Source of the DNA: Anthocerotibacter panamensis C109
GTDB taxonomy: Bacteria > Cyanobacteriota > Cyanobacteriia > Gloeobacterales > Anthocerotibacteraceae
Assembly: GCF_018389385.1 (NCBI RefSeq)
Contig: NZ_CP062698.1
Location: 3,294,667-3,318,666, forward strand
Direction of reading: 5' to 3'
Length of the DNA: 24,000 bases
Each line of letters starts with the position of its first letter. Position 1 is the stretch's first letter. The notes under the pieces were generated by a model that did no database searches, was not told the DNA's origin, and saw only the letters and a program-made list of their open reading frames with translations. This document shows, piece after piece, positions 208 through 24,000 of this stretch. A program made the translations under genes and the position numbers.

Positions 208-303
208 GTGTTTGCGCTACTGGCCCGCTGGTTCCATAAATTTGTCTGTTTGCTGCTTCTGTTTATTTTTACGGGCAACCCCCTGACGGCAGTAGTCCAA
301 GCG
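208..303 (+). other. predicted Sec-type signal peptide of the Rhs protein
   Basis: N-terminus MFALLARWFHKFVCLLLLFIFTGNPLTAVVQA|AV has a basic n-region, a hydrophobic core and a VQA-A cleavage-like site. No PAAR, VgrG, LXG or TPS-type N-terminal domain recognised. Confidence 0.55.
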
Positions 304-3300
304 GCGGTCTATGTCCCGAGTGGTTTCTACTACTACGACACTCTAGACTTGGCGCTGGGCGGGCAGTATCCCCTCTTTGTATCCCGACATTACCAGAGTC
401 AATCAGCTAGCGGTGCTTCAGTTGCGGGGTTGGATGGTCCTTTTGGACCAGGGACGCACATGGGGCTCTACAGCCTCAGAGCAGAGGTGGTCAGCACTTT
501 CCGGGTGCGCCTATTCATGCCCACGGGCGACGAGCAAGCCTTTATCAGAGTCGGCGATGGCACCTATCGCAATGAGCGCTTGTCTGACCCCATCCAGGGG
601 ATTGTCCAAGTCAATGGCACGACCATCACGCTGACGATGGAGCGTGGGACCGTTCTGAGCTTCACCGCCTCTGGGAGTACGCGACAGCTCAACTCCATCC
701 AGGACCGCCTCGGCAAAGTTATCCGGTTTGAGTATGACCCTGGGGAGAGCCGTATTCGCAAGGTCATTGATCCTTTTGGGCGCTACATCCAATTCGAGTA
801 TCAGGCGGGGACCAACCGGGTGAGTGTGGCCCAACTCTACGCCGGGACCGATGGCTTCAATGACTGGTTTGTAAGCTACGAGTACGACGGGTCGGGGAAT
901 CTGGTCCGTTTTCATAACGTGATGGATGGTCAGTTTGCCTCCCGTGCCGATGGCAGTCAGACTGCGACCAATGGCGTGACGCAATATAGCTACAGCGGCA
1001 ATGCCCTCACGACCATCACCGGACCGAGGGGCTATGTGGTCCTGACCAATAGCTATGACGGCAATGGACGGATCATTCAGCAGCGCTTGCCGGGGGTCAA
1101 TAGCAGCACCAGTGCTGACGATGTGCTCACCACCTACAGCTATGGGACCAACAGTGCAACGCTGAGTAACCGAGACCAAGCAGGGGCATCGCGCTTTCCA
1201 ACAACGTTGACTTGGGACGGGGCAACGCAAAATATCACCCAAGCCAGGTCTGAGGTGGATGGAAGTACCAGCAACGCCACCTATGACCCCACCTACAACC
1301 TGATTGCCACCTACAAGAATGCGCTCAACCAGCAGACGACCTGGAATTACCAGTTAGACAGCAGTGGGACCTTCACTCGCCTATCTCGCATACAACAAAG
1401 TGACAGCAGTCAGACGAATTTTAGCTTCAATGGCTCCTTTGGGCGCATCAGTAGTGTGACCGATGAGCGCAATCAGACCACGAGCTTTACCTACCATGCG
1501 GCGGACCAGTCCTTTGGGCTCAATCAGGTCTCCTCGCCCCTGCCGCAGAACGATTTCTATCCCCAGTACAACAGCTACGGACAGCCCTTGCGCTACCAAG
1601 ACGGGCAGGGGCGGCAGGTTACCTACACCTATAACGACTATGTACCCTCGGGGACTGACCCCAACCCCAACACCCGCTTTCAGGATCTAGCCTCTATCAC
1701 GGACGGGTCGGGCGTGCAGGTGCGCCTGAGCTATGATGCGCTGTCGCGGCTGACTAGTTTGACCGATGCTACGGGCAATACTTGGACCTACAGCTATGAC
1801 CGGCTCGGGCGGGTGCTCCAGATTATTGCTCCCGGCAACCGCACCACCCGCTACACCTATGATGACCAGTCGAATCTGACGAGCCTCACGGCTCCCAATG
1901 GCGTCAAGACCACCTATACCTATGATGCTTTGGACCGGGTGGCAAGCCGCACCCAGAATGGGCGCACGGAGTCCTATGGGTACAACGAACTGGGGCAACT
2001 GACCAGCAGCACCGACCCGAAGGGGCAGGTGACGAGCTACACCTTTGACAGTAAGGGGCGTACCGCGACGGTCACTTTCAACAACCAATCCACCCTGAGC
2101 TACAGCTACAACACGCTGGACCAAGTCACCCAGATAACGGATAGCTCCGACCCTGCCGGGAGCAAGAATATTGCCTTTAGCTACAGCACAGCCAGTAATC
2201 AAATCAACCGGCTAGCGCAGGTGACGACCGCTCCAGGCACCACGAGTCAGGATAAGTTGAACTACGCTTACGATGCGGCAGGGAATCTGACCAAAGTCAC
2301 CCGCGAGGCTCCACCGCCCCAGGAGCCCTATGGGTTTATGGACTATGGCAACTGTCAAAATGCTGGAGGATGGGCCTATGACCCGGATAACCCTAGCGCA
2401 ATTCTGGGCATTAACTTTTATCTGGATGGCCCGAGAGGGTCCGGGACCTATTTCGCATCAACGCAAACGGGGCTGTACCGCTCGGACCTCCAAGCCAATT
2501 GGGGATTTAACTTCACCTACCCCACCCCATTCCAGGACAACAGAGCACACACTGTCTACGCCTATGCCGTCAAAAATGGGATAGAAACTCTCCTGAACAC
2601 GGACCCTCAAACTACCCCTGTTTGTGCAGCACCAGCCCCCCCACCCACTACCCTTAACTGCGCCAACTACCCACTCAGCTTGAGTATTGACGAGGGTAAT
2701 TACTTCCCCGTTGGCAACGCTACTTTCCGGTGGACAGCCCCCGGTACTCCTAATGGTTACTACATTCGGGTTCAGAATGCAGCTACCGGTGCTATCCGCT
2801 ATGACAGCTCGCTGGTGAGCTTCACGTCCACGATATTGAGTCTGTCGCTGGGGAATTATCTGCTGAGCGGTTCTGTCTGGCTCAATGCTCCCAATGTCAT
2901 AGGCGCAACTCCAGATGCCGGAGGCTCTCGGTGTCCTAGCACCACGCCTATTGCCTTCACTGTCTACCGGGAGAATCGCCCCCCCCTGCAAAGTCCACAA
3001 CCCTTAGTTCTCCAGAATAAGGCTGAGGCATCTCTGGCTCCTGTCGTGTCCCCAGCGCCCCAACCGGATGTACCCCAGGGACCACCCGTGCTGACGGATT
3101 TGCTGCGCTACAGCTACAAGAATGACAACAGTCTGGCGAGCGCCACCTTAGTAGGCAATGGCGATGGCGCGGACCTGACGGTGAGCTTCAACTATGACGC
3201 TTCCGGCTCGCTGACCAGTGTGAGCTACCCCAATGGCTTGACCGGCAACTACAGCTACACGCGCCCGAGCGGTTCTCCCAATGGCGATGTCCGGCAGGTG

Positions 3301-6300
3301 ACCTTTAGCGTCGGCAGTACCGGCTTGCGTCAGGTCACCTATAGCTATGACTACGATGCCAGCAGCACCACAGCGCGGGGATATCTGACCCAGCGCACGG
3401 AGAGTGGTCCCAATGTGCCAGCCATTGCCCAGGGTCAGCAGTTCAGCTACAACGCGGTCGGGGAGCTAACCAGCACGCAGACTACAGCGGGCAGCTACAC
3501 CAGTGCCTACGACCTAGACGGTAACCCCACCGCTATCACCAATGCTGGGGTGAATACGACCGCCACCTATGAAGCAGGTAGCAACCGGATGACCGGCTTT
3601 GGGGGTCGCACCATTCAGACGGATGCCAACGGTAATATCACTAACGATGGCATCAACCGCTATGAGTGGAATGCCCGTGATGAACTCATCACCATCCGCG
3701 ACCAGAGTAACAACATCAGGGCCACGTTTATCTATGACGCTCTGGGTCGCCGTATTCAGAAGACAGTCAATGGGATAACCACCCAGTTCACCTACAGTGG
3801 CAGTCAGGTCATTGAAGAAGTGACCAATGGGGTCAAGAAGCGCTACTTGGTCGGTTTAGGGCTTGATGCAGTCTATGCTAGCCGAACTAATGGCGCGGAT
3901 GAATATTTGCTCAGAGACGCCCTCAACGGTTCCATCATTGCTGTGGTTGCGGGGAGCAATTCTCCGTATGTGAAGACCGGCTATGGCTACACGCCCTTCG
4001 GTCAAGTTGTGACTTCGAGTATCAACACTCTTCTGAGTGCGGACATCCTGTGGCGCAACACTGCCAGCAATCAAGTTGCAGTTTGGTTGATGAATGGAGC
4101 TACCTTTTCTGCTTCCACCCCTATTTCATATTATGCAGACCAAAATTGGCAAGTAGCGGCGAGTGGAGACTTGAATCAGGATGGCAAAACCGACATTCTT
4201 TGGCGAAACCTAATCACCGGACAAAATGTGGCATGGCTACTTGATGGAACCGCCTATAAGGGCGACGGCCCCTTACCTACCGTTACAGACCTATCCTGGC
4301 ATATTGAAGGCATAGCAGACTTCAATGGCGACGGGAAAAACGACTTGCTGTGGCGCAATTACGCTTCAGGAGCAAACTCTATCTGGTTGATGGATGGGAC
4401 AACACCGATAAGCTATCCTTCCTTACCCTGGCCTGCGGTCGGGGATCTTAATTGGCACATTGAGGAAGCTGCCGACTTCACAGGGGATGGGCAGCCTGAT
4501 ATCCTGTGGCGCAACTACAGCACTGGGACAGTAAGCATTTGGGTGATGAATGGGTTGAACTTTGTCTACAGTATTGGTTTGCCTATTGCGCCTGATCCAG
4601 CTTGGAAAGTTGGTGGGGTTGGCGACTTCACCGGAGACGGGAAAACAGATATCCTTTGGCGCAACTATACCGGTGGCGATATCCATATTTGGGTGATGTC
4701 TGGAGTTACCTATACGACCAGCATCGTTCTGTCTCCAGTTACCGATTTGAATTGGCAAATTGCCAGTGCTGGCGACTTTGGAGGTCCTGGTAGTGTCCCA
4801 CCTAACAATCTAACCTTCACAGGGCGCGAAGACGACGGAACCGGCCTCATCTACTACCGCGCCCGCTACTATTCTCCCGACCTGCAACGCTTTATCGCAG
4901 AAGACCCCTTGGGTTTTGGTGGGGGCGACACCAATCTCTACCGCTATGTGGGTAATACCCCCCATCTCGCGGTAGACCCCAGTGGCCTCCAGCAAACAAA
5001 ATTAAGTCCTAAGCCTACCCCCAGAAAACAAAGCAATGTCACCACCCAAAGTAGCATTACCGCCCCTGGTCCGACGACCAACAATTCTTGTGGTGTGGTT
5101 GTGTTCGGACCCGTTACCGCCTCCGCCGCACAGGGTAACCAAGCCATTGGGACAGACCCCCCACCTTCGCCTAACGACACTATTTGCGGATTTAGTATAA
5201 CCATTGGGGTTGGCGGCGGCGGCGGTTTCGTCGTCGCACTACCTGGTCAGACCGTCGCTGCTGGGGGTTCAGTTTCCTACGTTCCCTTCACCTACTTTTG
5301 CAATGCTTCCACCCCCTGCCTGCCCGAGGCTTATATTCAACTGTCTCTGAGTGGACAGCCCGCCGATTGGGTGCAAAGTGCCACCGCGATACCCGGAAGG
5401 ACAACCTACAGCTTCAATCCGCCCAACGTGTTCCCCTCGCAGCAGCAGAGTAGCACCCTGACGATACGCACCGATGCCAGTACGCCGCCGAATACCTACA
5501 ATCTGACCATCGGTGGGACTACCATCAATGGACCGTCGGGGGTGCGCTCGATGTCCACCAGCCTGACGGTAACGCCCCCGACCACGCCCCCAAATACCCC
5601 AACCATCACCAGTGTGAGCAGTTTCAGTGCCCAAGTGGGACAGACAGTGACCCTCACAGGCAACAATCTAGGCAATGCCACGCAAGTGTGGTTTGGAGGA
5701 GTTCCAGCAGCGTTCACCCTCAATGTCTCGACCAATACAGTAACGGCGGCAGTGCCCCCGAATGCCCCCACGGCTCCAATCAGTGTGGTCACGGCGAGTG
5801 GGACAACGCAGACAGCGCAGAATTTTATGCCTACGAATGTTCCTACTGCTCCGAGGCGAGCACAGTTTGATTTGGGCATAGCGGCTCAACAGCTCCAGCA
5901 ATTCTACGAACGCAACCAAGATGCGCTTCAGGGCACGTTTAGCGCCTTGGGACAGGTTTTGAACGGTGGACTCACCGGAATCCTGGGTCTGCTTGAACTC
6001 AGTGGAGGTGCAGCACTACTGAACTACGCTAACCTTGAAGATGGCTCCCTGAGTGGTGCGGTAGCGGCAGCGGCAGCAGCAGACTTATTAGCGGTTGGTT
6101 CTACTACAGTCCTTGCTGGCAATGCTTTGGTAAATCAGGGCGTTAAAGGGTTGTTCGAGCAGCAGTATTATGCAGCTTCGCAAGGAGGTGGGCAGATATT
6201 TAATGTTAAGGGCATTGGAAACTTAGATCTCACATCTGGAGGTATTAATAACTTTATTTCTAAAAACGCTAATCGCTTTCAAAAAAAGTTAGGAGATAAG

Positions 6301-6537
6301 ATTGGTCAGGGGCGGTTACCCTTTGAGAAAGGGCGAGCAGGGTTTGATAAAGCCCTATCCATAATTGATCGAACCCTAAAGAATCCAACAGATGTCTTTG
6401 GTCCATTTACTTCAGCAAGAGGACAAAACACCGTGATCGATATATTTAGTAGAGAAACAGGTTTTACAGTCCGAATCCGAGCCGATGGGAGTTTTGACAC
6501 CCTAATTCCAGGGCCAACACGAGGAATAAGACCATGA
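208..6537 (+). CDS. Full-length Rhs/YD-repeat polymorphic toxin (main gene, 2109 aa) with signal peptide, accessory-domain insertions, Rhs core end and a 515-aa post-DPSGL extension ending in a small variable toxin domain
   Basis: Single 6.3-kb ORF. Many YD-repeat signatures (YEYDGSGNLV, YSYDRLGRV, YTYDALDRV, YGYNELGQL, YAYDAAGNL, FIYDALGRR). Rhs core-end block LTFTGREDDGTGLIYYRARYYSPDLQRFIAEDPLGFGGGDTNLYRYVGNTPHLAVDPSGL at 4810-4989. The stop overlaps the next ATG (ATGA at 6534-6537). Confidence 0.9.
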   Translation: MFALLARWFHKFVCLLLLFIFTGNPLTAVVQAAVYVPSGFYYYDTLDLALGGQYPLFVSRHYQSQSASGASVAGLDGPFGPGTHMGLYSLRAEVVSTFRVRLFMPTGDEQAFIRVGDGTYRNERLSDPIQGIVQVNGTTITLTMERGTVLSFTASGSTRQLNSIQDRLGKVIRFEYDPGESRIRKVIDPFGRYIQFEYQAGTNRVSVAQLYAGTDGFNDWFVSYEYDGSGNLVRFHNVMDGQFASRADGSQTATNGVTQYSYSGNALTTITGPRGYVVLTNSYDGNGRIIQQRLPGVNSSTSADDVLTTYSYGTNSATLSNRDQAGASRFPTTLTWDGATQNITQARSEVDGSTSNATYDPTYNLIATYKNALNQQTTWNYQLDSSGTFTRLSRIQQSDSSQTNFSFNGSFGRISSVTDERNQTTSFTYHAADQSFGLNQVSSPLPQNDFYPQYNSYGQPLRYQDGQGRQVTYTYNDYVPSGTDPNPNTRFQDLASITDGSGVQVRLSYDALSRLTSLTDATGNTWTYSYDRLGRVLQIIAPGNRTTRYTYDDQSNLTSLTAPNGVKTTYTYDALDRVASRTQNGRTESYGYNELGQLTSSTDPKGQVTSYTFDSKGRTATVTFNNQSTLSYSYNTLDQVTQITDSSDPAGSKNIAFSYSTASNQINRLAQVTTAPGTTSQDKLNYAYDAAGNLTKVTREAPPPQEPYGFMDYGNCQNAGGWAYDPDNPSAILGINFYLDGPRGSGTYFASTQTGLYRSDLQANWGFNFTYPTPFQDNRAHTVYAYAVKNGIETLLNTDPQTTPVCAAPAPPPTTLNCANYPLSLSIDEGNYFPVGNATFRWTAPGTPNGYYIRVQNAATGAIRYDSSLVSFTSTILSLSLGNYLLSGSVWLNAPNVIGATPDAGGSRCPSTTPIAFTVYRENRPPLQSPQPLVLQNKAEASLAPVVSPAPQPDVPQGPPVLTDLLRYSYKNDNSLASATLVGNGDGADLTVSFNYDASGSLTSVSYPNGLTGNYSYTRPSGSPNGDVRQVTFSVGSTGLRQVTYSYDYDASSTTARGYLTQRTESGPNVPAIAQGQQFSYNAVGELTSTQTTAGSYTSAYDLDGNPTAITNAGVNTTATYEAGSNRMTGFGGRTIQTDANGNITNDGINRYEWNARDELITIRDQSNNIRATFIYDALGRRIQKTVNGITTQFTYSGSQVIEEVTNGVKKRYLVGLGLDAVYASRTNGADEYLLRDALNGSIIAVVAGSNSPYVKTGYGYTPFGQVVTSSINTLLSADILWRNTASNQVAVWLMNGATFSASTPISYYADQNWQVAASGDLNQDGKTDILWRNLITGQNVAWLLDGTAYKGDGPLPTVTDLSWHIEGIADFNGDGKNDLLWRNYASGANSIWLMDGTTPISYPSLPWPAVGDLNWHIEEAADFTGDGQPDILWRNYSTGTVSIWVMNGLNFVYSIGLPIAPDPAWKVGGVGDFTGDGKTDILWRNYTGGDIHIWVMSGVTYTTSIVLSPVTDLNWQIASAGDFGGPGSVPPNNLTFTGREDDGTGLIYYRARYYSPDLQRFIAEDPLGFGGGDTNLYRYVGNTPHLAVDPSGLQQTKLSPKPTPRKQSNVTTQSSITAPGPTTNNSCGVVVFGPVTASAAQGNQAIGTDPPPSPNDTICGFSITIGVGGGGGFVVALPGQTVAAGGSVSYVPFTYFCNASTPCLPEAYIQLSLSGQPADWVQSATAIPGRTTYSFNPPNVFPSQQQSSTLTIRTDASTPPNTYNLTIGGTTINGPSGVRSMSTSLTVTPPTTPPNTPTITSVSSFSAQVGQTVTLTGNNLGNATQVWFGGVPAAFTLNVSTNTVTAAVPPNAPTAPISVVTASGTTQTAQNFMPTNVPTAPRRAQFDLGIAAQQLQQFYERNQDALQGTFSALGQVLNGGLTGILGLLELSGGAALLNYANLEDGSLSGAVAAAAAADLLAVGSTTVLAGNALVNQGVKGLFEQQYYAASQGGGQIFNVKGIGNLDLTSGGINNFISKNANRFQKKLGDKIGQGRLPFEKGRAGFDKALSIIDRTLKNPTDVFGPFTSARGQNTVIDIFSRETGFTVRIRADGSFDTLIPGPTRGIRP
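2302..3090 (+). other. about 263-aa non-YD insertion in the Rhs shell region: GWAxDxD-type beta domain, Pro-rich linker, Ig/FN3-like domain, Pro-rich linker
   Basis: YD periodicity stops after YAYDAAGNLTKVTRE and resumes at LLRYSYKNDNSLASA. The insert contains YGFMDYGNCQNAGGWAYDPDNPSAILGINFYLDG...RSDLQANWGFNF...HTVYAYAV, then PVCAAPAPPPTT, then a beta-rich segment (NATFRWTAPGTPNGYYIRVQN...IAFTVY), then a P/Q-rich linker. Confidence 0.5.
4042..4809 (+). repeat. five tandem ~50-aa FG-GAP/VCBS-like repeats inserted between the last YD repeat and the Rhs core-end motif
   Basis: Repeating unit GDFxGDGKxDILWRNxxxGxxxxWxMxG. The DILWRN/DLLWRN codons recur at about 4042, 4195, 4345, 4498 and 4651 (period ~150 nt). 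Flanked by YGYTPFGQVV upstream and NNLTFTGREDDGTGL downstream. Confidence 0.75.
4810..4989 (+). other. Rhs core C-terminal block ending in DPSGL (expected autoproteolysis/demarcation motif)
   Basis: LTFTGREDDGTGLIYYRARYYSPDLQRFIAEDPLGFGGGDTNLYRYVGNTPHLAVDPSGL. DPSGL is encoded at 4975-4989. Full or partial copies recur at 10926-11063, 12634-12748, 15235-15416 and 19447-19570. Confidence 0.85.
5236..5577 (+). other. Ig-like beta-sandwich linker domain (linker type B)
   Basis: ALPGQTVAAGGSVSYVPFTYFC...SSTLTIRTDASTPPNTYNLTIGGTTINGPSGVRSMSTSLTVTP. The pattern resembles CARDB/DUF11-like Ig folds. Copies occur in the cassettes at 9210-9338 (partial), about 12980-13325 and about 19817-20158. Confidence 0.4.
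5599..5832 (+). repeat. IPT/TIG-like Ig domain, copy 1 of 7
   Basis: PTITSVSSFSAQVGQTVTLTGNNLGNATQVWFGGVPAAFTLNVSTNTVTAAVPPNAPTAPISVVTASGTTQTAQNFMP. The P-x-I-x-S-V-S...G-x-x-V-T-L-x-G-x-N-L...V-x-F-G-G layout is typical of IPT/TIG domains. Confidence 0.6.
5860..6174 (+). other. Gly/Ala-rich hydrophobic pre-toxin segment type D1, ending in LFEQQYYA
   Basis: AQFDLGIAAQQLQQFYERNQDALQGTFSALGQVLNGGLTGILGLLELSGGAALLNY...AAAAAADLLAVGSTTVLAGNALVNQGVKGLFEQQYYA. LFEQQYYA is encoded at 6151-6174. Paralogous copy at 18177-18491. Confidence 0.6.
6196..6534 (+). other. variable C-terminal toxin domain of the main Rhs (family not recognised)
   Basis: Similarity to the paralogous cassette at 18177-18512 ends right after EQQYYAASQGGGQ. 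The unique ~113-aa tail ends ...VIDIFSRETGFTVRIRADGSFDTLIPGPTRGIRP. Confidence 0.5.
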
Positions 6538-7160
6538 CTAGAGAACCTCTTCAAAGTCCCATTGGATGGGCTGACCTAGAATGCCTTCTATCGTGTCAAG
6601 AGCTTTCTATTCAATCTTTATATGCACTCGTAAAGATTGTCCAGGATTATGGTTTCATTTTGTTAGGCAGTGAATCCTTGTTAGCGTATGGTGATGACCC
6701 AGTCACGCCTGAACAGGTGGTTCCTGCCGAAAGAGTTAAGGAGTTTATAGCAGCGTTAGATAATTTAAGCATACGACATTGTATACTAAATTTTACAGGA
6801 GTTCTAGTTGATGTTCGGACACCATTAAGTCTTATAGTCGATTTCTGCAATGCAGTTGTGGTTGTTAGCATTCCAGAAAATGCACTTTGGAACTTTATAG
6901 AAGATTTCAAGAAAGTAGATTTTAGAAAACTAGAATCTTTTGCTAAATTGTGTCATAAAATCGCTACGGAGATAAGAGCCATACGTGGCTATCTTGGAAC
7001 TGAAATGCTTCACAGGGAAGATATGAACCTAACGAGGGACTTACATGAAGTATCATCCCCTGTAGATGAAGCCTTCTTTTCTAAAGAAACTTTAAGAGGG
7101 CTTTTTGACTGGTATTTTGCCTATGTCTGTGGATTTAATATAGGGCACCTCGATAAATAG
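6534..7160 (+). CDS. putative cognate immunity protein of the main Rhs toxin; 3' end altered by IS insertion
   Basis: ATGA start/stop overlap with the Rhs gene. Visibly AT-richer than the toxin gene. The last 5 codons (GHLDK-stop, 7143-7160) are encoded by the IS terminal repeat. Removing the IS and one TATA copy restores ...CGFNIHTVQ-stop. Confidence 0.6.
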   Translation: MTREPLQSPIGWADLECLLSCQELSIQSLYALVKIVQDYGFILLGSESLLAYGDDPVTPEQVVPAERVKEFIAALDNLSIRHCILNFTGVLVDVRTPLSLIVDFCNAVVVVSIPENALWNFIEDFKKVDFRKLESFAKLCHKIATEIRAIRGYLGTEMLHREDMNLTRDLHEVSSPVDEAFFSKETLRGLFDWYFAYVCGFNIGHLDK

Positions 7161-7271
7161 ATTCTGCCACCCCTAATTATTAGATAGAATATTTTTTTCA
7201 AGCAATAGCAACCAAAGATATTCTATTGGGCTTCATTTTGCTGTTCTTGTTCTCTTTTTTATCTCATTTAC

Positions 7272-8524
7272 TCACACTATCCCTGCTGTTTTTAAGTAGA
7301 CGTACCGTTTCAAGTTATAGCTCAGATTGAGCAAGCCCACTTTCGCAGCGATCCGTATCTGCCCCACGCCACGCAAGAGCTTCCCACCCATCTCATTTAC
7401 AAAACGACCAAACACATGTTCTACCCGTGCTCGGATTCGTGACTTCTCCCGATTCTCACTTTTTTGAGCTTCTGTCAATTCCCGATTTCGATAGCCCCGT
7501 TCATGGATCTTGCTATGAAAACCCATTTTAGCTAGCGCCCATTCTGTATCTGCACTGCGATAAGCACTGTCCGCCCACACGCTATCGCCTTCATTTTCTG
7601 CATCCAGGATGGCCCCTAACATTTGGGAGTCATGCACGGCGGCATCAGTCACCGCATAAACTCGAATAAAGCCGTATTCTGCATCGATATTTACATGGTT
7701 CTTGTAGCCAAAGTGCGATTCATCATTTTTTTTGGTCCAGCGGGCATCCCAGGGTCGTTTCATTCTCCGCGTTAAAGACTCAAATTCAAGGATGAGGGAT
7801 GTACCCCCGGATAAATAGCACTGACATAAATGACACAGCTTATTGCACGGTAAGTCTTGAAAACCTTGCCTGAAGATAATCCTAGCCAATTGAACTGACA
7901 TTTTTTCAAAACCCTGTCACCGCTTCATTTGGACTGTTTTCTCATCTAAATGAGAATGAAAAGACCCTGGCGGGCATCCACATCTTTTTGTTCTTTTTTT
8001 GATTCAGACCAACCTTCTGGAACTTGTCCAGCCTTGATTTGCTCATTCTCTAAACGTTTATTATGTTGCTTGGGCACAGGGATAAAACTAGCATCCACAA
8101 TCTGTCCACTCTTGGCTTGGTAGCCTTCCTCTACCAGATAGCTTTCAAAGCGCAAGTACAACGCTTCTATCAAACCTAACTGGGTTAACTGTTCTCGGAA
8201 TAAACCAATCGTCGTAGCGTCCGGGATTTGATCTTCTAGACCCAAATGCAAAAACTTCATAAAGGACAGGCGATCATGAACTTGGTATTCCAACTCAGCA
8301 TCGCTAATGTTATAGAGGCGTTGCAGTATTAGCATTTTAAATTTTAAAATTACGTCGATAGGCTTACGACCTGCATTACTTTTCCTGTCTTGAGCATAAA
8401 CTTGCTCCAGGATCGGGCGAAAATCCGACCAGGGAATCAGGGTATCTAACCGAACTAAAAAGCTTTTTCGTTGTTGCAATTGCTGATGGCGTTGTTCCCA
8501 ATCCCAAAACCCTTGCTGTCCCAT
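7272..8524 (-). pseudogene. IS5-family DDE transposase, split into two ORFs by a nested MITE
   Basis: The N-terminal ORF (likely ATG at 8524) reads MGQQGFWDWEQRH...NAGRKPIDVILKFKMLILQ...KDVDAR. The C-terminal ORF reads ...DARWTKKNDESHFGYKNH...ADSAYRS...RARVEHVFGRF. Deleting 7750-7979 (230 bp) fuses both in frame (KDVDARWTKKND) into about 340 codons. Confidence 0.85.
7750..7969. mobile_element. 220-bp MITE-like element nested in the IS5 transposase gene
   Basis: 18-bp terminal inverted repeats: CAGGGTCGTTTCATTCTC (7750-7767) versus the reverse complement of 7952-7969, CAGGGTCTTTTCATTCTC (17/18). Perfect 10-bp direct duplication GCGGGCATCC at 7740-7749 and 7970-7979. No credible coding capacity. 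Confidence 0.75.
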
Positions 8525-8795
8525 AATCAATTCCTTGGTTTCTCCAATTTTCTCATTTAGCAGCTCGCTAGGCAATTAATCGAGGTGCCCTATACATACT
8601 GTACAGTAAATAAACTATATTATTTCTCCCTCGCTCTATTAGACATTAAGTATTTAACTCTAATATTGTAGGGAAAGGTGCGTTTGGGCTTCCATAAGGA
8701 ATTAGCAATGGGTAGCCAAGTTCAATTCTACTCTACATAACCTATCAAGACGAAATCAATTTCTAGAGGTAACTCGGGCCTCGCTTAATGCGTAT

Positions 8796-12643: not shown

Positions 12644-14272
12644 TTGCGTGGCGAAGCCATAGACCCCCTGGACTTTGGGGGTGGCGACACCAACCTCTAC
12701 CGCTATGTGGGTAATACCCCGCATCTCGCGGTGGACCCCAGTGGACTCCAGCAGAGAAAATTAAGTCCTACGCCTGCCCCCAGAAAACAAAGCAACATTA
12801 CCGCCCCTCCTGCTGCGACCAACGATAGTTGTGTGGCCTTTTTTGGCTCTGTTACTCCTTCCTCTGGCCTCAATGACCAACCAACTCTGGTAGACCCGCC
12901 TGCTACCAATATCACTATTAGCTGTACCTGTGACCCGCTTTGCTTTGACATCAGAATTGGTGTGGGCGGCCCTCCGCCCACGGGTTTACCCGGTCAGACC
13001 GTGGCTGCCGGGGGCTCGACTTCCTACGTGCCCTTCACCTACTTTTGCAATGCTTCCACCCCCTGCCTGCCCGAAGCCTATATTCAACTGTCCTTGAGTG
13101 GACAGCCCGCTGATTGGGTGCAAAGTGCTACCGCGATACCCGGAAGGACAACCTACAGTTTCAATCCACCCAATGTCTATCCTTCGCAGCAGCAAAGTAG
13201 CACACTGACGATCCGCACCGATGCCAGTACGCCTCCCAACATCTACAACCTGACGATTGGCGGGACTACGATTAATGGCCCGTCGGGGGTGCGCTCAATG
13301 CCCACCAGTCTGACGGTGACGCCTTCGACCACGCCCCCAAACACACCGAGCATCAGCACGGTGAGCAGCTTTAGTGCCCAAGTGGGTCAGACGGTGACGC
13401 TCACAGGCAACAATTTGGGCAGTGCCACGGAAGTATGGTTTGGCGGTGTCCCAGCCGCCTTCACCGCGAATGTCTCGACCAATCAAGTGACGGCGACCAT
13501 CCCGCCGAATGCCCCCACGGCTCCAATCAGTGTGGTCACGGCGAGTGGGACAACGCAGACAGCACAGAATTTTGTGCCTACGAATGTTCCTACTGCTCCG
13601 AGGCGAGCGCAGTTCAACTTGGGAGTTGCGGCAGGGCAATTACGCAATGCAATCGTTGACTTTCCTGGAGTTCGTGGGTTTGCTACATTCACCTCGGGAG
13701 CCTATGACTTTGCTTCATTTGGCCTTACCGCTGCATTACGTGGAGGGTTGAATAGCCTTACCCAGGTCAGTGACCCAATTAATACAAGCTCCGGTCTGTA
13801 TCGTGCAGGTCAAGTCGCTGGTCTAGCGGCATCGTTTGTATTAGGGACTGGTGAAGCAGGATTAATTGCTGAAGTTGAAGAAGGAGTATCGGGTATAGGT
13901 CGAGTAGCTGAAGTTGTAGGAGGGCGAACTCGACCTAGTTTTTATGTGACGCCGGGAGGTACCGTAGTACCCAGCGTTACTCCTGCTGGTATAGAAGTTT
14001 CAGCGGAGGCAGCTTTTCGTTTAGGAGAAGGAAGATTCAACGAAGCTTTGACTTTAGAGAATCTTGATGTCTTAATAGAAAGAGGAGAGAAGTTCATCGA
14101 AGATAATGGAAACTTAGTTCGTCGGCTACCTGCTTCAGGCGTAGGTGTACCTAGCAGGTCTGGGCGTTCTTTCATTGAAGCGATCCTTGATCCAATAGGG
14201 AGACGTATTATCACCATCATTCGCCGACAAAGACCGCTTCCCCCTGGGCGCTTTACACAGGTTAATCCATGA
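12644..14272 (+). CDS. orphan Rhs C-terminal cassette 4 (no credible own start): core end, Ig-like linker, TIG, ~215-aa unique C-terminal region
   Basis: Homology begins at 12634 with the same junction as cassette 3 (SDSLRGEAIDPLDFGGGDTNLYRYVGNTPHLAVDPSGL). DPSGL at 12734-12748. TIG at 13346-13579. Diverges after AQFNLGVAAGQ (about 13640) and has no EQQYYA motif. Confidence 0.8.
   Translation: MRGEAIDPLDFGGGDTNLYRYVGNTPHLAVDPSGLQQRKLSPTPAPRKQSNITAPPAATNDSCVAFFGSVTPSSGLNDQPTLVDPPATNITISCTCDPLCFDIRIGVGGPPPTGLPGQTVAAGGSTSYVPFTYFCNASTPCLPEAYIQLSLSGQPADWVQSATAIPGRTTYSFNPPNVYPSQQQSSTLTIRTDASTPPNIYNLTIGGTTINGPSGVRSMPTSLTVTPSTTPPNTPSISTVSSFSAQVGQTVTLTGNNLGSATEVWFGGVPAAFTANVSTNQVTATIPPNAPTAPISVVTASGTTQTAQNFVPTNVPTAPRRAQFNLGVAAGQLRNAIVDFPGVRGFATFTSGAYDFASFGLTAALRGGLNSLTQVSDPINTSSGLYRAGQVAGLAASFVLGTGEAGLIAEVEEGVSGIGRVAEVVGGRTRPSFYVTPGGTVVPSVTPAGIEVSAEAAFRLGEGRFNEALTLENLDVLIERGEKFIEDNGNLVRRLPASGVGVPSRSGRSFIEAILDPIGRRIITIIRRQRPLPPGRFTQVNP
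13346..13579 (+). repeat. IPT/TIG-like domain, copy 4
   Basis: PSISTVSSFSAQVGQTVTLTGNNLGSATEVWFGGVPAAFTANVSTNQVTATIPPNAPTAPISVVTASGTTQTAQNFVP. Confidence 0.6.
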
Positions 14273-19440: not shown

Positions 19441-21094
19441 CGACCACTACTACAGCCCAGAACTCCAGCGCTTTATCGCAGAAGACCCCTTGGGTTTTGG
19501 TGGGGGCGACACCAATCTCTACCGCTATGTGGGTAATACCCCGCATCTCGCGGTAGACCCCAGTGGACTCCAGCAAACAAAATTAAGTCCTAAGCCTACC
19601 CCCAGAAAACAAAGCAATGTCACCACCCAAAGCAGCATTACCGCCCCTGGTCCGACGACCAACAATTCTTGTGGTGTGGTTGTGTTCGGACCCGTTACCG
19701 CCTCCGCCGCACAGGGTAACCAAGCCATTGGGACAGACCCCCCACCTTCGCCTAACGACACTATTTGCGGATTTAGTATAACCATTGGGGTTGGCGGCGG
19801 CGGCGGTTTCGTCGTCGCACTACCTGGTCAGACCGTCGCTGCTGGGGGTTCAGTTTCCTACGTTCCCTTCACCTACTTTTGCAATGCTTCCACCCCCTGC
19901 CTGCCCGAGGCTTATATTCAACTGTCTCTGAGTGGACAGCCCGCCGATTGGGTGCAAAGTGCCACCGCGATACCCGGAAGGACAACCTACAGTTTCAATC
20001 CACCCAATGTCTATCCTTCGCAGCAGCAGAGTAGCACCCTGACGATACGCACCGATGCCAGTACGCCGCCGAATACCTACAATCTGACCATCGGTGGGAC
20101 TACCATCAATGGACCGTCGGGGGTGCGCCCGATGCCCACCAGTCTGACGGTGACGCCCCCGACCACGCCCCCCAATACCCCAACCATCACCAGTGTGAGC
20201 AGTTTCAGTGCCCAAGTGGGTCAGACGGTGACCCTCACGGGCAACAATCTAGGCAATGCCACCCAAGTATGGTTTGGAGGAGTTCCAGCAGCATTCACCC
20301 TCAATGTCTCGACCAATCAAGTGACAGCAACAGTGCCCCCGAATGCCCCCACGGCTCCAATCAGTGTGGTCACGGCGAGTGGGACAACGCAGACAGCGCA
20401 GAATTTTGTGCCTGTGCAGGTGGCTACGGCCCTACGCCAAGCACAATCTGCTCTAGCGAATGTCGCTGACCAGCTCTTGCAGGGATTGACCAGCCGAGAT
20501 TTCCTGGAGAGTGTAGCTAATGGGGCAGATGCTACAGGGAATGCAGCAGGAGCCTTGGCACTTATTCTTGGCGCAGAAGGTACAGGTACAACACTCACGG
20601 GTGTTGGAGCGCTCATTGGGGTACCAAGCTTGGCTGGAGCAGTGGGTGCAGCCGGAGTATCTGTCATTGCTAAGGGGAGCGCAACTTTGATTCGAGGGTT
20701 GCTGGAGCAGCAGTTCTATGCGATAGAAGGCCCCTTGGAAAATGCTAACTTTGCGCAGAAGAGCATTAATAAGGGAGAATTATTTAGTGAGGAAGGACAA
20801 GCTATCTATAGCAAGTTAGCAGGCAGACCAATTAAAACAGTTAACGATCTTGTCGAGGCAATTAAAGGTGGGGGCATTAATCCTGCCGATATTAAAATTG
20901 ACTATATCATTCGCGAAGGAAATACCCTTTTATTGAACACTCGCTCTGTAGCAGCCCTTGAGCGTGCAGGGGTTCCCCGTAGCGCCTTCTCTGCTATAAA
21001 TAGAACTGGAGATCCTTTCTTTGAAAAGCTGCTTGATGCTCAATTGCGCCGCAATGGGCTGACAAGCCAAGGTACTCCAAAGCTGCTCAGGTAA
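19421..21094 (+). CDS. orphan Rhs C-terminal cassette 7 (5' end cut by the IS remnant): core end, Ig-like linker, TIG, D2 segment, ParB-like-looking toxin
   Basis: Rhs homology from YYSPELQRFIAEDPLGFGGGD (19447). DPSGL at 19556-19570. 19469-19992 is near-identical to 4888-5411. TIG at 20180-20413. LLEQQFYA at 20699-20722. The unique tail reads IEGPLENANFAQKSINKGELFSEEG...IKIDYIIREGNTLLLNTRSVAALERAGVPR... Confidence 0.8.
   Translation: MVTAKRNDHYYSPELQRFIAEDPLGFGGGDTNLYRYVGNTPHLAVDPSGLQQTKLSPKPTPRKQSNVTTQSSITAPGPTTNNSCGVVVFGPVTASAAQGNQAIGTDPPPSPNDTICGFSITIGVGGGGGFVVALPGQTVAAGGSVSYVPFTYFCNASTPCLPEAYIQLSLSGQPADWVQSATAIPGRTTYSFNPPNVYPSQQQSSTLTIRTDASTPPNTYNLTIGGTTINGPSGVRPMPTSLTVTPPTTPPNTPTITSVSSFSAQVGQTVTLTGNNLGNATQVWFGGVPAAFTLNVSTNQVTATVPPNAPTAPISVVTASGTTQTAQNFVPVQVATALRQAQSALANVADQLLQGLTSRDFLESVANGADATGNAAGALALILGAEGTGTTLTGVGALIGVPSLAGAVGAAGVSVIAKGSATLIRGLLEQQFYAIEGPLENANFAQKSINKGELFSEEGQAIYSKLAGRPIKTVNDLVEAIKGGGINPADIKIDYIIREGNTLLLNTRSVAALERAGVPRSAFSAINRTGDPFFEKLLDAQLRRNGLTSQGTPKLLR
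20180..20413 (+). repeat. IPT/TIG-like domain, copy 7
   Basis: PTITSVSSFSAQVGQTVTLTGNNLGNATQVWFGGVPAAFTLNVSTNQVTATVPPNAPTAPISVVTASGTTQTAQNFVP. Confidence 0.6.
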
Positions 21095-21100
21095 GCGCCC

Positions 21101-21481
21101 ATGGAAACACAGATAGTCTACACAATTCCCAATACAGCTCTCGATTGCTTAAATGCTCAATTTATATATGAGGAAACAGACTTGATCCTCAAGTTGGAGT
21201 ACGAAGATGAAGATGGTATGGTGCGGTCCTATCACATTCGGTTTATTCATGCGCAATTGTTTCGATTTGAAAATGAAATGCACTGTATTTCCATCACAGC
21301 AGGAGCCTATGATGGGGTAGTTGAATTAGTTGATTCGGCTTGGGCTATGGAGATCAATTCCTTTGAAAATGAATATAACCGTCACAGTCCCTGGAGTAAA
21401 AGACATTTTTGCATATATATCAGTAGCACAGGACAGCTAAATATCATTGCAGACAGTTTCACTGTTGAGGTTGTAAAATGA
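21101..21481 (+). CDS. putative immunity protein for cassette 7
   Basis: Starts 6 nt after the toxin stop. 126 aa, AT-rich. The pattern ...HIRFIHAQLFRFENE...VVELVDSAWAMEI...RHFCIYISSTGQLNIIADSFTV resembles common small Rhs/CDI immunity proteins. Confidence 0.6.
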   Translation: METQIVYTIPNTALDCLNAQFIYEETDLILKLEYEDEDGMVRSYHIRFIHAQLFRFENEMHCISITAGAYDGVVELVDSAWAMEINSFENEYNRHSPWSKRHFCIYISSTGQLNIIADSFTVEVVK

Positions 21482-22041
21482 CAGCAGAAGAAATAATTCA
21501 GTTAAGCAAGACTATCTCTCATGCTTTACGTCACGAACCTTGGCTCTACGAGTTAGAAATTGACAACGAAGGATGGGTACTAGTCGAGACGTTACTCAGT
21601 TCTTTGCGTGCAGAGAGAACTGAATGGTCATCTCTGGGTGTAGCTGACTTAGAAAAGTTATTAACATTCTTTGACAAAAAACGGTTTGAGCTAAAGAATG
21701 AGAAAATTCGTGCTCTTTATGGTCATTCTATCCCCAAGAAACTACTGAAGCAGCCTGCCCTACCACCAATAACTTTGTATCATGGAACAGCGGTCGAGTC
21801 AGCGGCATCAATAAAAATTTATGGTTTACGGCCCATGGGCCGTCAGTACGTACATATGTCAGTGGAGGTAGAAACAGCGAGAGAAGTTGGTAGGCGAAAA
21901 TCCAAGTCGTCAATTGTTCTAACGATCTTGGCACAAAATGCATACAACAATGGTTTATCATTCTATCCGGCTGGGGAATTCGTCTGGCTAGCTGACTACG
22001 TGCTATCAAACTACATTCAGTTTACTGGGCACCTTGATTAA
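21478..22041 (+). CDS. kptA: RNA 2'-phosphotransferase (KptA/Tpt1 family); extreme C-terminus replaced by a MITE end
   Basis: LSKTISHALRHEPWLYELEIDNEGWVLVETLL, IRALYGHSIP, LYHGTAVESAASIKIYGLRPMGRQYVHMS and VWLADYV match the Tpt1/KptA layout (SKxLSxxLRH, GW, xGHS, YHGT, GLxxMxRxHVHLS). ATGA overlap with the preceding immunity gene. The last codons GHLD-stop are encoded by the MITE terminus (22027 onward). Confidence 0.8.
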   Translation: MTAEEIIQLSKTISHALRHEPWLYELEIDNEGWVLVETLLSSLRAERTEWSSLGVADLEKLLTFFDKKRFELKNEKIRALYGHSIPKKLLKQPALPPITLYHGTAVESAASIKIYGLRPMGRQYVHMSVEVETAREVGRRKSKSSIVLTILAQNAYNNGLSFYPAGEFVWLADYVLSNYIQFTGHLD

Positions 22042-22125
22042 TCCAAGCTTGTTGATAATCAGCTATGACAAAGCAGGGGTTTCAGGCTTTGCTTATTACG
22101 AAAAAGGTAATTAATCGAGGTGCCC
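22027..22125. mobile_element. 99-bp MITE/IS-derived element carrying the termini of the IS5-family element
   Basis: Ends are GGGCACCTTGATTAAT (22027-22042) and the reverse complement of 22109-22125, GGGCACCTCGATTAATT. Both match the 8574-8590 end of the IS at 7143-8590. No transposase and no flanking direct duplication (left flank ...TTTACT, right flank CGAGAA...). Confidence 0.65.
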
Positions 22126-22127
22126 CG

Positions 22128-22588
22128 AGAAGGATGGCTCCTGGTTCGCAGTTGGGCAGCTCGCTCCTAGATCAAAAAAGGCGACGGGGTACAGCCTGGA
22201 GGTCGAGGATGACCATACATATTTTGTTGGAGATTCTGGCGCGTGGGTGCATAATGAGTGTCTTGCTGCAAAGGGGGCAAGTGAGCTTTCCTTCGGTCGT
22301 AAGTTGGACTTCCTTTTCAACAAGGGAATTGACCAATCCAACGCCTACAACGCTGCGCGCGCCGCAGGTAATGCTGAACGAATCGGTATTGCCGATACAG
22401 CAGCGAATCGCGCCGAAGTTGCGAGGCTATTCAATCAGGCCTATCGAGATCCTTCTTCTATTGTTGAGCCGGGGAAGGTTCTCGGCAGCAACCTCCGAGA
22501 GTTCTTCCTTCCCGGCGTTACCGGGACTGGCTCAAAGATCCAGTTCGTTGAGAGGGGTGGACAGGTGATCACCATCATTGCCAAGTAA
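22128..22588 (+). pseudogene. orphan cassette of a second toxin type: C-terminal fragment of a Hint domain plus ~105-aa toxin domain
   Basis: Immediately after the MITE, KDGSWFAVGQLAPRSKKATGYSLEVEDDHTYFVGDSGAWVHNECLAAKG is paralogous to 23529-23674. The unique tail reads ASELSFGRKLDFLFNKGIDQSNAYNAARAAGNAERIGIADTAANRAEV...GSKIQFVERGGQVITIIAK. Confidence 0.7.
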
Positions 22589-22598
22589 GAAGATTGAT

Positions 22599-23081
22599 AT
22601 GGAATTTATCTCAGTGTCCTGGACATCTGTCGAGTCAAAGAATGCCTTGAGCAACTTTTTAGCCAAAGAAGGTGCCACGAGCGAACTGGCGACAGCAGAT
22701 CCAAATACATGGGGCTTCTTCCCGCTGCCGAATGGTAAGAAGCTTGTGGTTGGCTATGCGAATTTGGGCTTGACGCCAGTGGCTACCGTGGTGAACGGCC
22801 ACTTGCTCATCGGTATCAATGAAATCCTTGCTGGCTTTGATCTGAACACCCTACAGAGAACGTTCATATATCGCATGCCATCCGTCTTTCACGAATTCGT
22901 ATCGCTCAAGGATCCGGTCATCGTTCGCGACGAAGTGGGGTTCATTTGCATTTCAGCTACAGGAGTGGAGAGATGGGCGCTCTTGACGAACGGGCCAATC
23001 AATCAGTTCACAATCGAAGGTGCGTTCATCCGTGGAGTGACCATTGACGATGAGCCGTTCAAGTTCGCCATTCCTTCATAA
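22599..23081 (+). CDS. putative immunity protein for the Hint-type orphan toxin
   Basis: ATG at 22599, 10 nt after the toxin stop, is preferred over the TTG at 22578. 160 aa. Unlike the Rhs-array immunity genes, it is not AT-rich. Confidence 0.5.
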   Translation: MEFISVSWTSVESKNALSNFLAKEGATSELATADPNTWGFFPLPNGKKLVVGYANLGLTPVATVVNGHLLIGINEILAGFDLNTLQRTFIYRMPSVFHEFVSLKDPVIVRDEVGFICISATGVERWALLTNGPINQFTIEGAFIRGVTIDDEPFKFAIPS

Positions 23082-24000
23082 TTCTTTGCTGCAAAGGGGG
23101 TAGCAGCCGATGCCCAGTTCGCGCAGAAGACCTAAGCTGCGGAGTACGGTTAGTCTCACGCTTGGGACGGGGCGGGCGCTCTGTCCGTCGCTTTGAGGCG
23201 AGTGTTCAGGAGGTGCGCACAGTCGCCAATGGTCTGGGTTGCTCGTTCGTGGCAGGTACTCCAGTTCTGGCTGAGGGTGGACAGCAGCCCATCGAGAAGC
23301 TCAAGCCGGATGATAAAGTCCTGGCAAGAGATGAAGTGACAGGTGCACAGAACTATCAACGGGTCCTCCAAACCTTTGCCACGCCCAATGACCCGCTCTA
23401 TGACCTGGAACTAGTCAGCGCAACCGGGAAGCGAGAAGTACTCGGAGTAACGGGCAATCATCCCTTCTGGGTCAAGGACAAGGGCTGGACAGAGACCGAC
23501 CTACTCAAGCCGGGGATGCAAGTCGCGGGCAAAGATGGCTCCTGGCTGATGGTTGGGAAGTTCGTGCCTAGAGCGGAACGGGCGACGGGGTACAACCTGG
23601 AGGTTGAGGATGATCACACGTACTTTGTGGGGGATTCCGGGGCGTGGGTACATAATGAATGTCTTGCCGCAAAGACAGCAGAGACGGTTGCGGCTGATGC
23701 AGCGGCGGCAGGAGGTAGAGGGCCAAGCTTTATTGCGGCTGCGGACGGTAGCGTCTTTCCAGTTCCGAGAGGAGCAACAGGGCCACTCCCGACACGAGCT
23801 CCTGGAATGCAGTTTACCGGCGGCTCTGGCGGATACGGCCTTGACCCGCGAGTAACTGGTGTTCGTTTCATGGACGCCAACGCAAACCAAGGAGCGCGAG
23901 CGGTTTACATGAATCAAGCCGGGCAGACGGTGAATCCGTTCACCGGTCGTACTGTGCCATACAGCGATCCAACCGCGCACTTCTACTTCAACCCGAACCC
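23054..24000 (+). CDS. Hint-domain polymorphic toxin fragment (no start identified; open at the 3' window edge), missed by the ORF track
   Basis: Frame is open from 23054 to 24000. Complete mini-Hint at 23240-23656, then LAAKTAETVAADAAAAGGRGPSFIAAADGSVFPVPRG...GGYGLDPRVTGVRFMDANANQGARAVYMNQAGQTVNPFTGRTVPYSDPTAHFYFNPN, continuing beyond the window. Confidence 0.75.
23083..23133 (+). other. relic of a third Hint/toxin junction (FAAKGVAADAQFAQKT-stop)
   Basis: TTTGCTGCAAAGGGGG at 23085-23100 repeats CTTGCTGCAAAGGGGG at 22262-22277. The encoded AAKGVAADA resembles AAKTAETVAADA at 23666 onward. It is followed by a stop after 17 codons. Confidence 0.4.
23240..23656 (+). other. mini-Hint (bacterial intein-like / pre-toxin HINT) domain, 139 aa
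   Basis: N-terminal CSFVAGTPVLAEGGQQPIEKLKPDDKVLARDE and C-terminal GYNLEVEDDHTYFVGDSGAWVHN are the canonical Hint block A and block F/G signatures (Cys1 ... HTYFV ... VHN). Confidence 0.8.

Follow-up and report, generated by a model that had tools for sequence, protein, structure and literature searches.

Positions 22128-24000 of a 24,000-nt stretch of the Anthocerotibacter panamensis C109 genome (the whole stretch is referred to here as the window) are very likely a set of orphan, spare polymorphic-toxin cassettes, probably untranslated, in which a pretoxin Hint domain (PT-HINT) serves as the constant 5´ handle. Cassette 1 comprises a Hint truncated at a miniature inverted-repeat transposable element (MITE), a BECR-type (barnase/EndoU/colicin E5-D/RelE) putative tRNase, toxin A, and an immunity gene; after it come a relic junction and then an intact Hint joined to a second toxin, toxin B. 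The full-length toxins of this lineage would have the order Rhs shell, DPxGL, Gly/Ala-rich linker, Hint and toxin. In such a protein Asn cyclization at the terminal His-Asn of the Hint would break the chain behind these two residues, freeing an ECLAAK-toxin for delivery, and the conserved 3´ end of the Hint gene would let new toxin tips with their immunity genes enter by homologous recombination. We infer the self-cleavage at His-Asn, the switching of cassettes and the silence of the toxin parts from what is known of the family. There is no Hint-bearing partner gene in the window, which suggests that the toxin parts are silent here; the immunity genes may still be used.

Sequence comparison confirmed the handle as a pretoxin Hint domain of the PT-HINT or type A bacterial intein-like (BIL) type. 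Copy 2, the complete one (23240-23656, + strand), is the 139-aa domain that an earlier note made from the letters of the window (the sequence-only reading) had delimited. It runs from Cys1 (23240-23242) to Asn139 (23654-23656), ends in His-Asn, and translates in the frame that opens at 23054 as GCSFVAGTPVL...HTYFVGDSGAWVHN. The sequence-only reading had proposed a profile search for PT-HINT; the Pfam model PF07591 matched copy 2 with E=1e-20 and 74.9 bits (cut-off 27.7) over profile positions 6-137 of 137, and both Hint copies scored above the cut-off of TIGR01443 (intein_Cterm). The generic Hint_2 and Intein_splicing models stayed below theirs, Intein_splicing reaching 17.2 bits against a cut-off of 35.8. 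When copy 2 was aligned with 11 relatives, the catalytic positions were found to be conserved as in a type A BIL domain: the block B Thr-x-x-His, TGNH within GVTGNHPFW in copy 2, is nearly invariant (T80 and H83), and the His-Asn end (H147, N148) is invariant in all 12 sequences. The +1 residue is Glu in both window copies, and neither has a Cys, Ser or Thr nucleophile there after WVHN. In type A BIL domains a thioester forms at the N-terminus, Asn cyclization cuts the C-terminus and cleavage products dominate (PMC4031507), and release at HN has been proposed for type A BIL and PT-HINT domains (PMC4031507, PMC9086364, PMC3482391).

Of copy 1, only the C-terminal ~42 codons are present (22130-22255, + strand; KDGSWFAVG...HTYFVGDSGAWVHN). 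These gave partial matches to PF07591 (19.1 bits, profile positions 96-137 only) and TIGR01443 (18.7 bits, cut-off 15.6) and lack both Cys1 and the TxxH block. The earlier description of the Hint as a whole domain therefore applies to copy 2 but not to copy 1. The frame of copy 1 opens after an in-frame TAA (22112-22114), and reading frame 2 of the + strand runs from 22115 to 22588 as SRCPEKDGSWFAVGQLAPRSKKATGYSLEVEDDHTYFVGDSGAWVHN-ECLAAK-GASELSFGRKLDFLF...IIAK-stop.

The two copies end alike and then part. On the + strand, WVHN at 22244-22255 is followed by ECLAAK at 22256-22273 (junction 1), and WVHN at 23645-23656 by ECLAAK at 23657-23674 (junction 2), ECLAAK being the last stretch that they have in common. 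A repeat finder returned a direct repeat of 144 nt (22130-22273 and 23531-23674, 81% identity), and in a base-by-base comparison no similarity was left beyond the Lys codon of ECLAAK, the sequences downstream being unrelated. A third junction, at 23082-23135 on the + strand, reads FFAAKGVAADAQFAQKT-stop and lacks both a Hint before it and a toxin after it. This relic shares the exact 15-mer TTGCTGCAAAGGGGG with junction 1 (22263-22277 = 23086-23100); even at 2 mismatches no site in the window other than these two matches the 15-mer, compared to 0.09 expected by chance, and the VAADA after it in the relic resembles the linker after junction 2. All three junction occurrences listed in the sequence-only reading, one of them given there as a relic, were confirmed. 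That reading also took VHNECLAAK for the boundary motif. Both copies do end in it, but what is broadly conserved is WVHN and a Cys, while ECLAAK is lineage-specific: the junctions of relatives read ECLVAK, ECLLVK, ECLNNA or ECG..., and the ECLAAK motif recurs only in the window's lineage. The Cys, 2-4 residues past the terminal HN, is invariant in 12/12 aligned close relatives. Among 28 distant PT-HINT junctions a Cys at this distance was present in about two thirds, far above chance; in the window the corresponding codons are 22259-22261 and 23660-23662.

The nearest locus that we found, a 9.9-kb contig from a Gloeobacterales metagenome-assembled genome (L002), has the same design on a larger scale. 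Six-frame translation of this contig revealed eight Hint-toxin units, all on the same strand and mostly truncated at the N-terminus. The sequence after the terminal WVHN differs from unit to unit, and small genes, among them immunity types of the Ank-repeat and CdiI_ImmP kinds, follow most of the units. The toxin A cassette of L002 carries a complete Hint (protein P0001). Window positions 22180-23407 align to the contig at 87% identity, a stretch that takes in toxin A, immunity A, the relic and the beginning of the following Hint, and this shared order indicates that the arrangement predates the split of the two organisms. The relic, whose counterpart in L002 reads FLDAKRVAKVYG, lies within the aligned stretch and is therefore ancestral. 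A BrnT/BrnA-type toxin-antitoxin module (PF04365 plus a helix-turn-helix protein; L002:5068-6032) in reverse orientation interrupts the L002 Hint that matches window copy 2.

The comparison with L002 also located an exchange point. In the Hint end, up to position 22189, 14-18 of every 30 nt are identical between the two loci (dS, the synonymous divergence, is 1.07), while from 22190 onward, toxin A included, 23-29 of 30 are (dS 0.20). Identity thus rises from ~55% to ~93% inside the Hint 3´ end, with the crossover in the conserved GYNLEVEDDHTYFVG...WVHN block, within the last ~75 nt of the Hint gene. The jump in identity and dS means that the Hint bodies in front of the shared toxin differ between the two genomes, which is direct evidence, at the level of aligned sequence, that the Hint 3´ end acts as a recombination handle. 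The breakpoint and the 144-nt repeat that stops at ECLAAK bear out the earlier proposal that the Hint C-terminus is the cassette boundary, and the eight cassettes of L002 bear out the proposed array design.

The Hint is followed in the window by two unrelated toxin-type C-terminal domains, as the sequence-only reading had claimed, and the first of these is homologous to a toxin of a contact-dependent growth inhibition (CDI) system with a solved structure. Toxin A (22274-22588, + strand; ~105 aa, stop at 22586-22588) has no Pfam model. Its AlphaFold2 model (predicted local distance difference test score, pLDDT, 89.8) matched 6cp9_A in Foldseek with E=1.4e-5, a template modeling (TM) score of 0.66-0.71 and 26% identity, and a sequence profile of toxin A reached the 6CP9 chain in hmmsearch with E=2.2e-6. 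PDB entry 6CP9 is the CdiA C-terminal toxin (CdiA-CT) of Klebsiella pneumoniae 342; this toxin, a tRNase with a BECR fold, depends on EF-Tu, EF-Ts and GTP (PMC9086364). Sequence and model together point to toxin A as a BECR-fold relative of CdiA-CT(Kp342) and a putative tRNase. The databases hold 25 homologs of toxin A, in which the ~100-aa domain occupies the C-termini of proteins that are named filamentous haemagglutinin or have a signal peptide. The catalytic residues of the Kp342 toxin are K157, Y160, H170, R252 and T255 (PMC9086364). The Lys appears to be kept in toxin A (KLDF as compared to KFDY), with the residue numbering inferred and the C-terminal catalytic residues outside the alignment.

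Immunity A (22599-23081, + strand; 160 aa) has an ATG start 10 nt past the toxin A stop. No match was found for it in Pfam, PDB sequence or PADLOC searches. L002 (91% identity), L039 (41%) and L040 (43%) each encode a homolog of immunity A immediately behind a toxin A homolog, and the family has 49 invariant columns. This pairing in three other loci is the pattern that a cognate immunity protein would give, and it strengthens the earlier description of the gene as immunity-like. Relative to L002, the ratio of nonsynonymous to synonymous divergence (dN/dS) is 0.23 for toxin A and 0.20 for immunity A; values of ~0.2 fit an immunity gene in use and, for toxin A, either a silencing that is recent or use from time to time. 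The only record of the immunity A protein is on a Logan contig (L001, 2577 bp) identical to window 20621-23197.

Behind junction 2, the Ala-rich linker TAETVAADAAAAGG leads into toxin B, a predicted all-beta domain (~90 aa) whose end lies outside the window (linker and toxin together, 23675-24000, + strand). The search returned 22 homologs at E <= 0.001 (P0019-P0040), none with a Pfam domain; they end 2-3 residues beyond the window end, so toxin B is nearly complete in the window. In these proteins the domain follows the HN of a Hint (P0024), DPFGL of an Rhs protein (P0030) or signal peptides, and it has the conserved pattern GPSF...PVPxGATGP...QFTGGSGG..LDxRVxGVRxMD...YxNxxGQTVxPxTG...DPxxH. 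One signal-peptide protein (P0032, ENA, 145 aa) is 98% identical to the start of toxin B and has the same FLAAKTAETVAADAAAAG linker without a Hint in front, so the LAAK linker also occurs as a junction in a non-Hint context. Toxin B had no match in Pfam, NCBIfam, PADLOC or PDB sequences. For its structural model, a confident one (pLDDT 84.7), the best Foldseek match was the DNase toxin PT7 (8owu; E=0.33, TM 0.34-0.52), which is too weak to use. Small proteins are encoded directly downstream of the toxin B homologs in two loci (L042:4423-4764, L046:1669-2022), one of them inside an Rhs orphan array, and are 38% identical to each other (E=3e-24); these partners are related proteins of ~115 aa. 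In A. panamensis the toxin B immunity gene would lie just past the window end. No exact match to the last 32 nt of the window was found in a metagenome scan.

What a full-length protein of this kind might look like is seen in relatives. In distant relatives examined with 10-kb flanks, 70-270 aa separate the Hint from the C-terminus of the protein, which is 1200-4600 aa long. An exhaustive representative search with the Hint returned 22,424 relatives, and one of the closest, P0073, is a protein of 2125 aa with a Hint 61% identical to copy 2. It is ordered DUF6531, RHS repeats, YD shell, DPTGL, a Gly/Ala-rich linker of ~115 aa, Hint and a tip of ~105 aa, with an immunity-like gene downstream. 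Four other proteins of 800-1435 aa (P0067, P0068, P0076, P0077) contain four to six separate matches to the Hint query and may represent tandem Hint repeats or concatenated read-through cassettes.

The Rhs gene of the window itself (208-6537) encodes no Hint. It has DPSGL at residues 1590-1594, followed by an Ig/TIG extension and an EQQYYA junction. The protein has an FG-GAP beta-propeller inserted before the end of the core and ~500 residues past DPSGL (Ig/TIG and Gly/Ala-rich linker) before EQQYYA and the toxin; this unusually long post-DPxGL extension is also the handle of the upstream orphan cassettes. Searching the window with the Hint by tblastn returned only the two copies, and comparison of 22126-24000 with 1-22026 by blastn and tblastx found no similarity at the DNA or protein level, which leaves the Hint cassettes without a recombination partner in view. 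A link between the pre-Hint region of P0008 and the FDL...QFYE linker of the window Rhs protein was also considered and rejected, the likeness being by eye only (BLASTP E=4.3).

Hint and Rhs-type cassettes are nevertheless interleaved in related loci. In L003, from the same sequencing run as the window, the end of a mobile element is followed by a 5´-truncated Hint with a third toxin (P0005, named by NCBI as an Anthocerotibacter panamensis protein), a 79-aa gene, and a Hint end fused at GDS|ADWVQS to a Rhs-type cassette segment. At this chimeric joint (L003:992-1264) a short A-WV microhomology links the Hint C-terminus (HTYFVGDS) to ADWVQSSTPIPGRTTYSF, a conserved Ig-like segment of Rhs-type cassettes found in the window at 5360-5415, 13107-13162 and 19941-19996; the joint suggests that illegitimate recombination interleaves the two kinds of cassette. 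A mat metagenome contig (L047) carries the trio FG-GAP/TIG Rhs-type orphan, KptA and Hint orphan, and in L038 YD-shell, YD-shell-plus-Hint and Hint-only orphans are interleaved. Judged by these gene orders, Rhs orphan arrays regularly include Hint cassettes in these lineages. The sequence-only reading had described a separate second array. Its cassette design is matched in L002, but its independence is doubtful, given the interleaving in L003, L047 and L038 and a left border that is a MITE-associated truncation.

The frame of copy 2 opens at 23054, after a stop at 23051-23053, and stays open to the window end; it is missing from the program-made list of open reading frames (ORFs) because that list omits ORFs running off the window, as had been noted earlier. 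A spacer and pre-Hint leader (23136-23239, + strand) precede Cys1 in the frame open from 23054, and other cassettes have a pre-Hint segment similar to its last ~17 codons, EASVQEVRTVANGLG. In P0066 the leader is identical, and in L002 it carries a frameshift. Neither Hint copy has an ATG start, and the sequence-only reading was right that no start can be identified in either. For copy 2 the only in-frame candidates are TTG 23162 and GTG 23213; neither is preceded by a spaced Shine-Dalgarno sequence, and an AGGAGG abuts GTG 23213 with zero spacing. In consensus scans, promoter-like sites numbered 4 compared to 2.8 expected, and terminators were not found. No Rfam match was obtained in 21900-24000, and the window cassettes contain no signal peptide or secretion domain.

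Four observations nevertheless weigh against regarding the region as spare, untranslated cassettes with a tRNase-type first toxin. First, in-frame TTG 23162 and GTG 23213 (copy 2) and GTG 22247 (copy 1) make translation possible. Second, toxin A, like immunity A, is under purifying selection (dN/dS ~0.2), which for the toxin is not expected of a long-silent fragment; the divergence between the toxin A genes of the window and L002 may predate the truncation, which would soften this objection. Third, in the profile alignment Tyr160 and His170 of the Kp342 toxin appear as Phe and a non-conserved Asn in toxin A. Fourth, no full-length gene with the Hint was found for the source organism, where one protein search returned only short proteins of the lineage.

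The first two of these points, together with several others, would suit an alternative in which the Hint-toxin modules are stand-alone genes that start at non-ATG codons just upstream of the Hint, with the Hint processing its own product. Gene callers start P0001 and P0066 at positions equivalent to TTG 23162 and GTG 23213, which precede Cys1, most close database relatives are 150-330 aa long, and a stand-alone status was suggested for Neisseria class 1 mafB-CT cassettes, with a TTG start inside the BIL domain (PMC4287609). Set against this are the missing ATG and properly spaced Shine-Dalgarno sequence, the frameshifted leader in L002, the lack of a secretion or delivery domain, the loss of the catalytic N-terminal blocks from copy 1 and promoter-like sites that are no commoner than chance. 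Gene callers, moreover, yield short proteins from orphan fragments anyway. We regard stand-alone genes as unlikely. It is likewise doubtful, and we would give it little weight, that the modules are minimal self-processing toxin genes, beginning at a TTG or GTG a few residues before Cys1, in which the Hint and the Cys 2-4 residues past HN form a release or ligation device without an Rhs or CdiA carrier. A related version would have the Hint cassettes and the FG-GAP/TIG Rhs cassettes as one mixed array with microhomology joints such as GDS|ADWVQS in L003.

A further possibility is that copy 1 is what remains, at the 3´ side, of a full-length main toxin gene lost through a deletion associated with the MITE or an insertion sequence (IS), with copy 2 as its first downstream orphan. 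The left border of the region is a 99-bp MITE-like element (22027-22125, no strand assigned) with 16-nt arms, GGGCACCTTGATTAAT / ATTAATCGAGGTGCCC. The same terminal repeats flank an IS5-like transposase element at 7143-8590, the terminal inverted repeat GGGCACCTCGATWAAT being common to both, and the arms have 4 matches in the window compared to 0.26 expected. The MITE has no target-site duplication (ACT vs CGA), which suggests an adjacent deletion, and probably a MITE-associated deletion of this kind removed the first ~97 Hint codons of copy 1; the MITE also supplies the stop ahead of copy 1. A MITE that abuts a truncated Hint without a target-site duplication, in a locus where IS elements with the same ends are active, would be in keeping with a destroyed main gene. 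The syntenic L002 cassette, however, has a complete Hint with ~32 codons of open frame upstream and other cassettes before it. A short upstream frame and preceding cassettes in L002 indicate that the Hint-toxin A unit was already an orphan before the truncation, and we consider a destroyed main gene very improbable. A conventional intein or intein remnant in an ordinary gene, which the sequence-only reading had raised for a housekeeping gene, can be set aside almost entirely, since sub-threshold Intein_splicing and Hint_2 matches and a match to the short intein C-terminal motif model are outweighed by the profile scores (Intein_splicing 17.2 vs 35.8 bits, PT-HINT 74.9 vs 27.7), a +1 Glu in place of Cys, Ser or Thr, flanks made up of variable toxin and immunity genes in place of a split conserved host protein, and the lack of a homing endonuclease.

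Orphan cassettes built on a Hint handle thus remain the explanation that we favor, and base composition does not set them apart as foreign. The G+C content is 0.57 for the Hint, 0.535 for toxin A, 0.50 for immunity A and 0.59 for toxin B, compared to 0.34-0.43 for the immunity genes, 0.45-0.47 for the toxin tips and 0.556 for the conserved Rhs body of the Rhs array. The GC-richness that the sequence-only reading reported relative to the Rhs cassettes is therefore real for the tips and immunity genes, but its suggestion of a different origin does not follow: the Hint cassettes match the Rhs body, and the argument shows AT-rich Rhs tips and immunity genes (0.34-0.47) rather than foreign Hint cassettes.

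The cassette design is already described in the literature, and the current understanding of polymorphic toxins is unchanged by our results. In polymorphic toxin systems, HINT acts as the releasing peptidase directly ahead of the toxin, and toxin cassettes also occur solo, with an immunity gene downstream (Zhang, Iyer, Aravind et al. 2012, PMC3482391). The window agrees with these systems in the order delivery module-HINT-toxin, with toxin then immunity gene (PMC3482391, PF07591), and in the arrays of solo cassettes that are recombined into the 3´ tip of a main gene; nothing essential differs. Both toxins and immunity A are without a Pfam model. In Neisseria, the first part of a mafB-CT cassette is a type A BIL domain, slightly truncated, where the constant region meets the variable one (Jamet et al. 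2015, PMC4287609). The likeness is close: alternative C-terminal toxin cassettes with their own immunity genes, located downstream of the main gene there, start with a Hint/BIL domain of ~140 aa, slightly truncated at the N-terminus there, the BIL lies exactly between the constant and variable regions, and ATG-less cassettes occur. The Neisseria main gene, in contrast, is MafB (signal peptide and DUF1020) and not Rhs, the host is a proteobacterium where here it is a basal cyanobacterium, and one cassette here has a complete Hint with a short pre-Hint leader, with no Hint-bearing main gene in view.

In Pseudomonas CdiA a PT-HINT with WVHN delimits CdiA-CT (Mercy et al. 2016, PMC4725963; review PMC9086364), and the terminal Asn of WVHN is the proposed cleavage residue, with BIL autoproteolysis (PMC4725963, PMC9086364). 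As in Pseudomonas class I CdiA, a WVHN-ending PT-HINT marks the border between conserved and polymorphic parts in the window, and toxin A is of the CdiA-CT family (Kp342-like). Those proteins, however, use two-partner (type V) secretion and a filamentous haemagglutinin stalk, whereas here the nearest full-length relative is Rhs (P0073) and the cassettes lie in an Rhs orphan array. With Rhs and CdiA orphan arrays at DPxGL or VENN, the region shares a constant handle, a variable tip, an immunity gene and a tandem arrangement on one strand, and IS elements and truncations are common in both. It differs in that the handle is a whole 139-aa domain, autoproteolytic-type by analogy, rather than a short peptide motif, and in that the exchange point falls inside the last ~75 nt of the Hint domain.

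Our analysis adds a thylakoid-less, basal cyanobacterial lineage (Gloeobacterales) to the keepers of PT-HINT toxin cassettes and offers a clear case of an exchange point that maps within the last ~75 nt of the Hint gene. As by-products, two families emerged that no Pfam model covers: a toxin-immunity pair related to the EF-Tu-dependent tRNase CdiA-CT(Kp342), and the ~90-aa beta domain of toxin B, with N-terminal partners of the Hint, Rhs and signal-peptide kinds.

An ORF for a KptA/Tpt1 RNA 2´-phosphotransferase (21478-22041; PF01885, E=1.8e-34) separates the Hint cassettes from the last cassette of Rhs type and the 126-aa partner of that cassette. The last five codons and the stop of this ORF come from the left inverted repeat of the MITE. 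KptA/Tpt1 could have an accessory immunity or repair function. A KptA 38% identical to that of the window is also found next to the Hint orphan of L047 (5144-5737, - strand). Finally, another MITE/IS end (L003:1-29) lies 78 nt upstream of the second truncated Hint cassette, in L003, so that an IS family with MITE-type ends repeatedly borders truncated cassettes, in the window and in L003.

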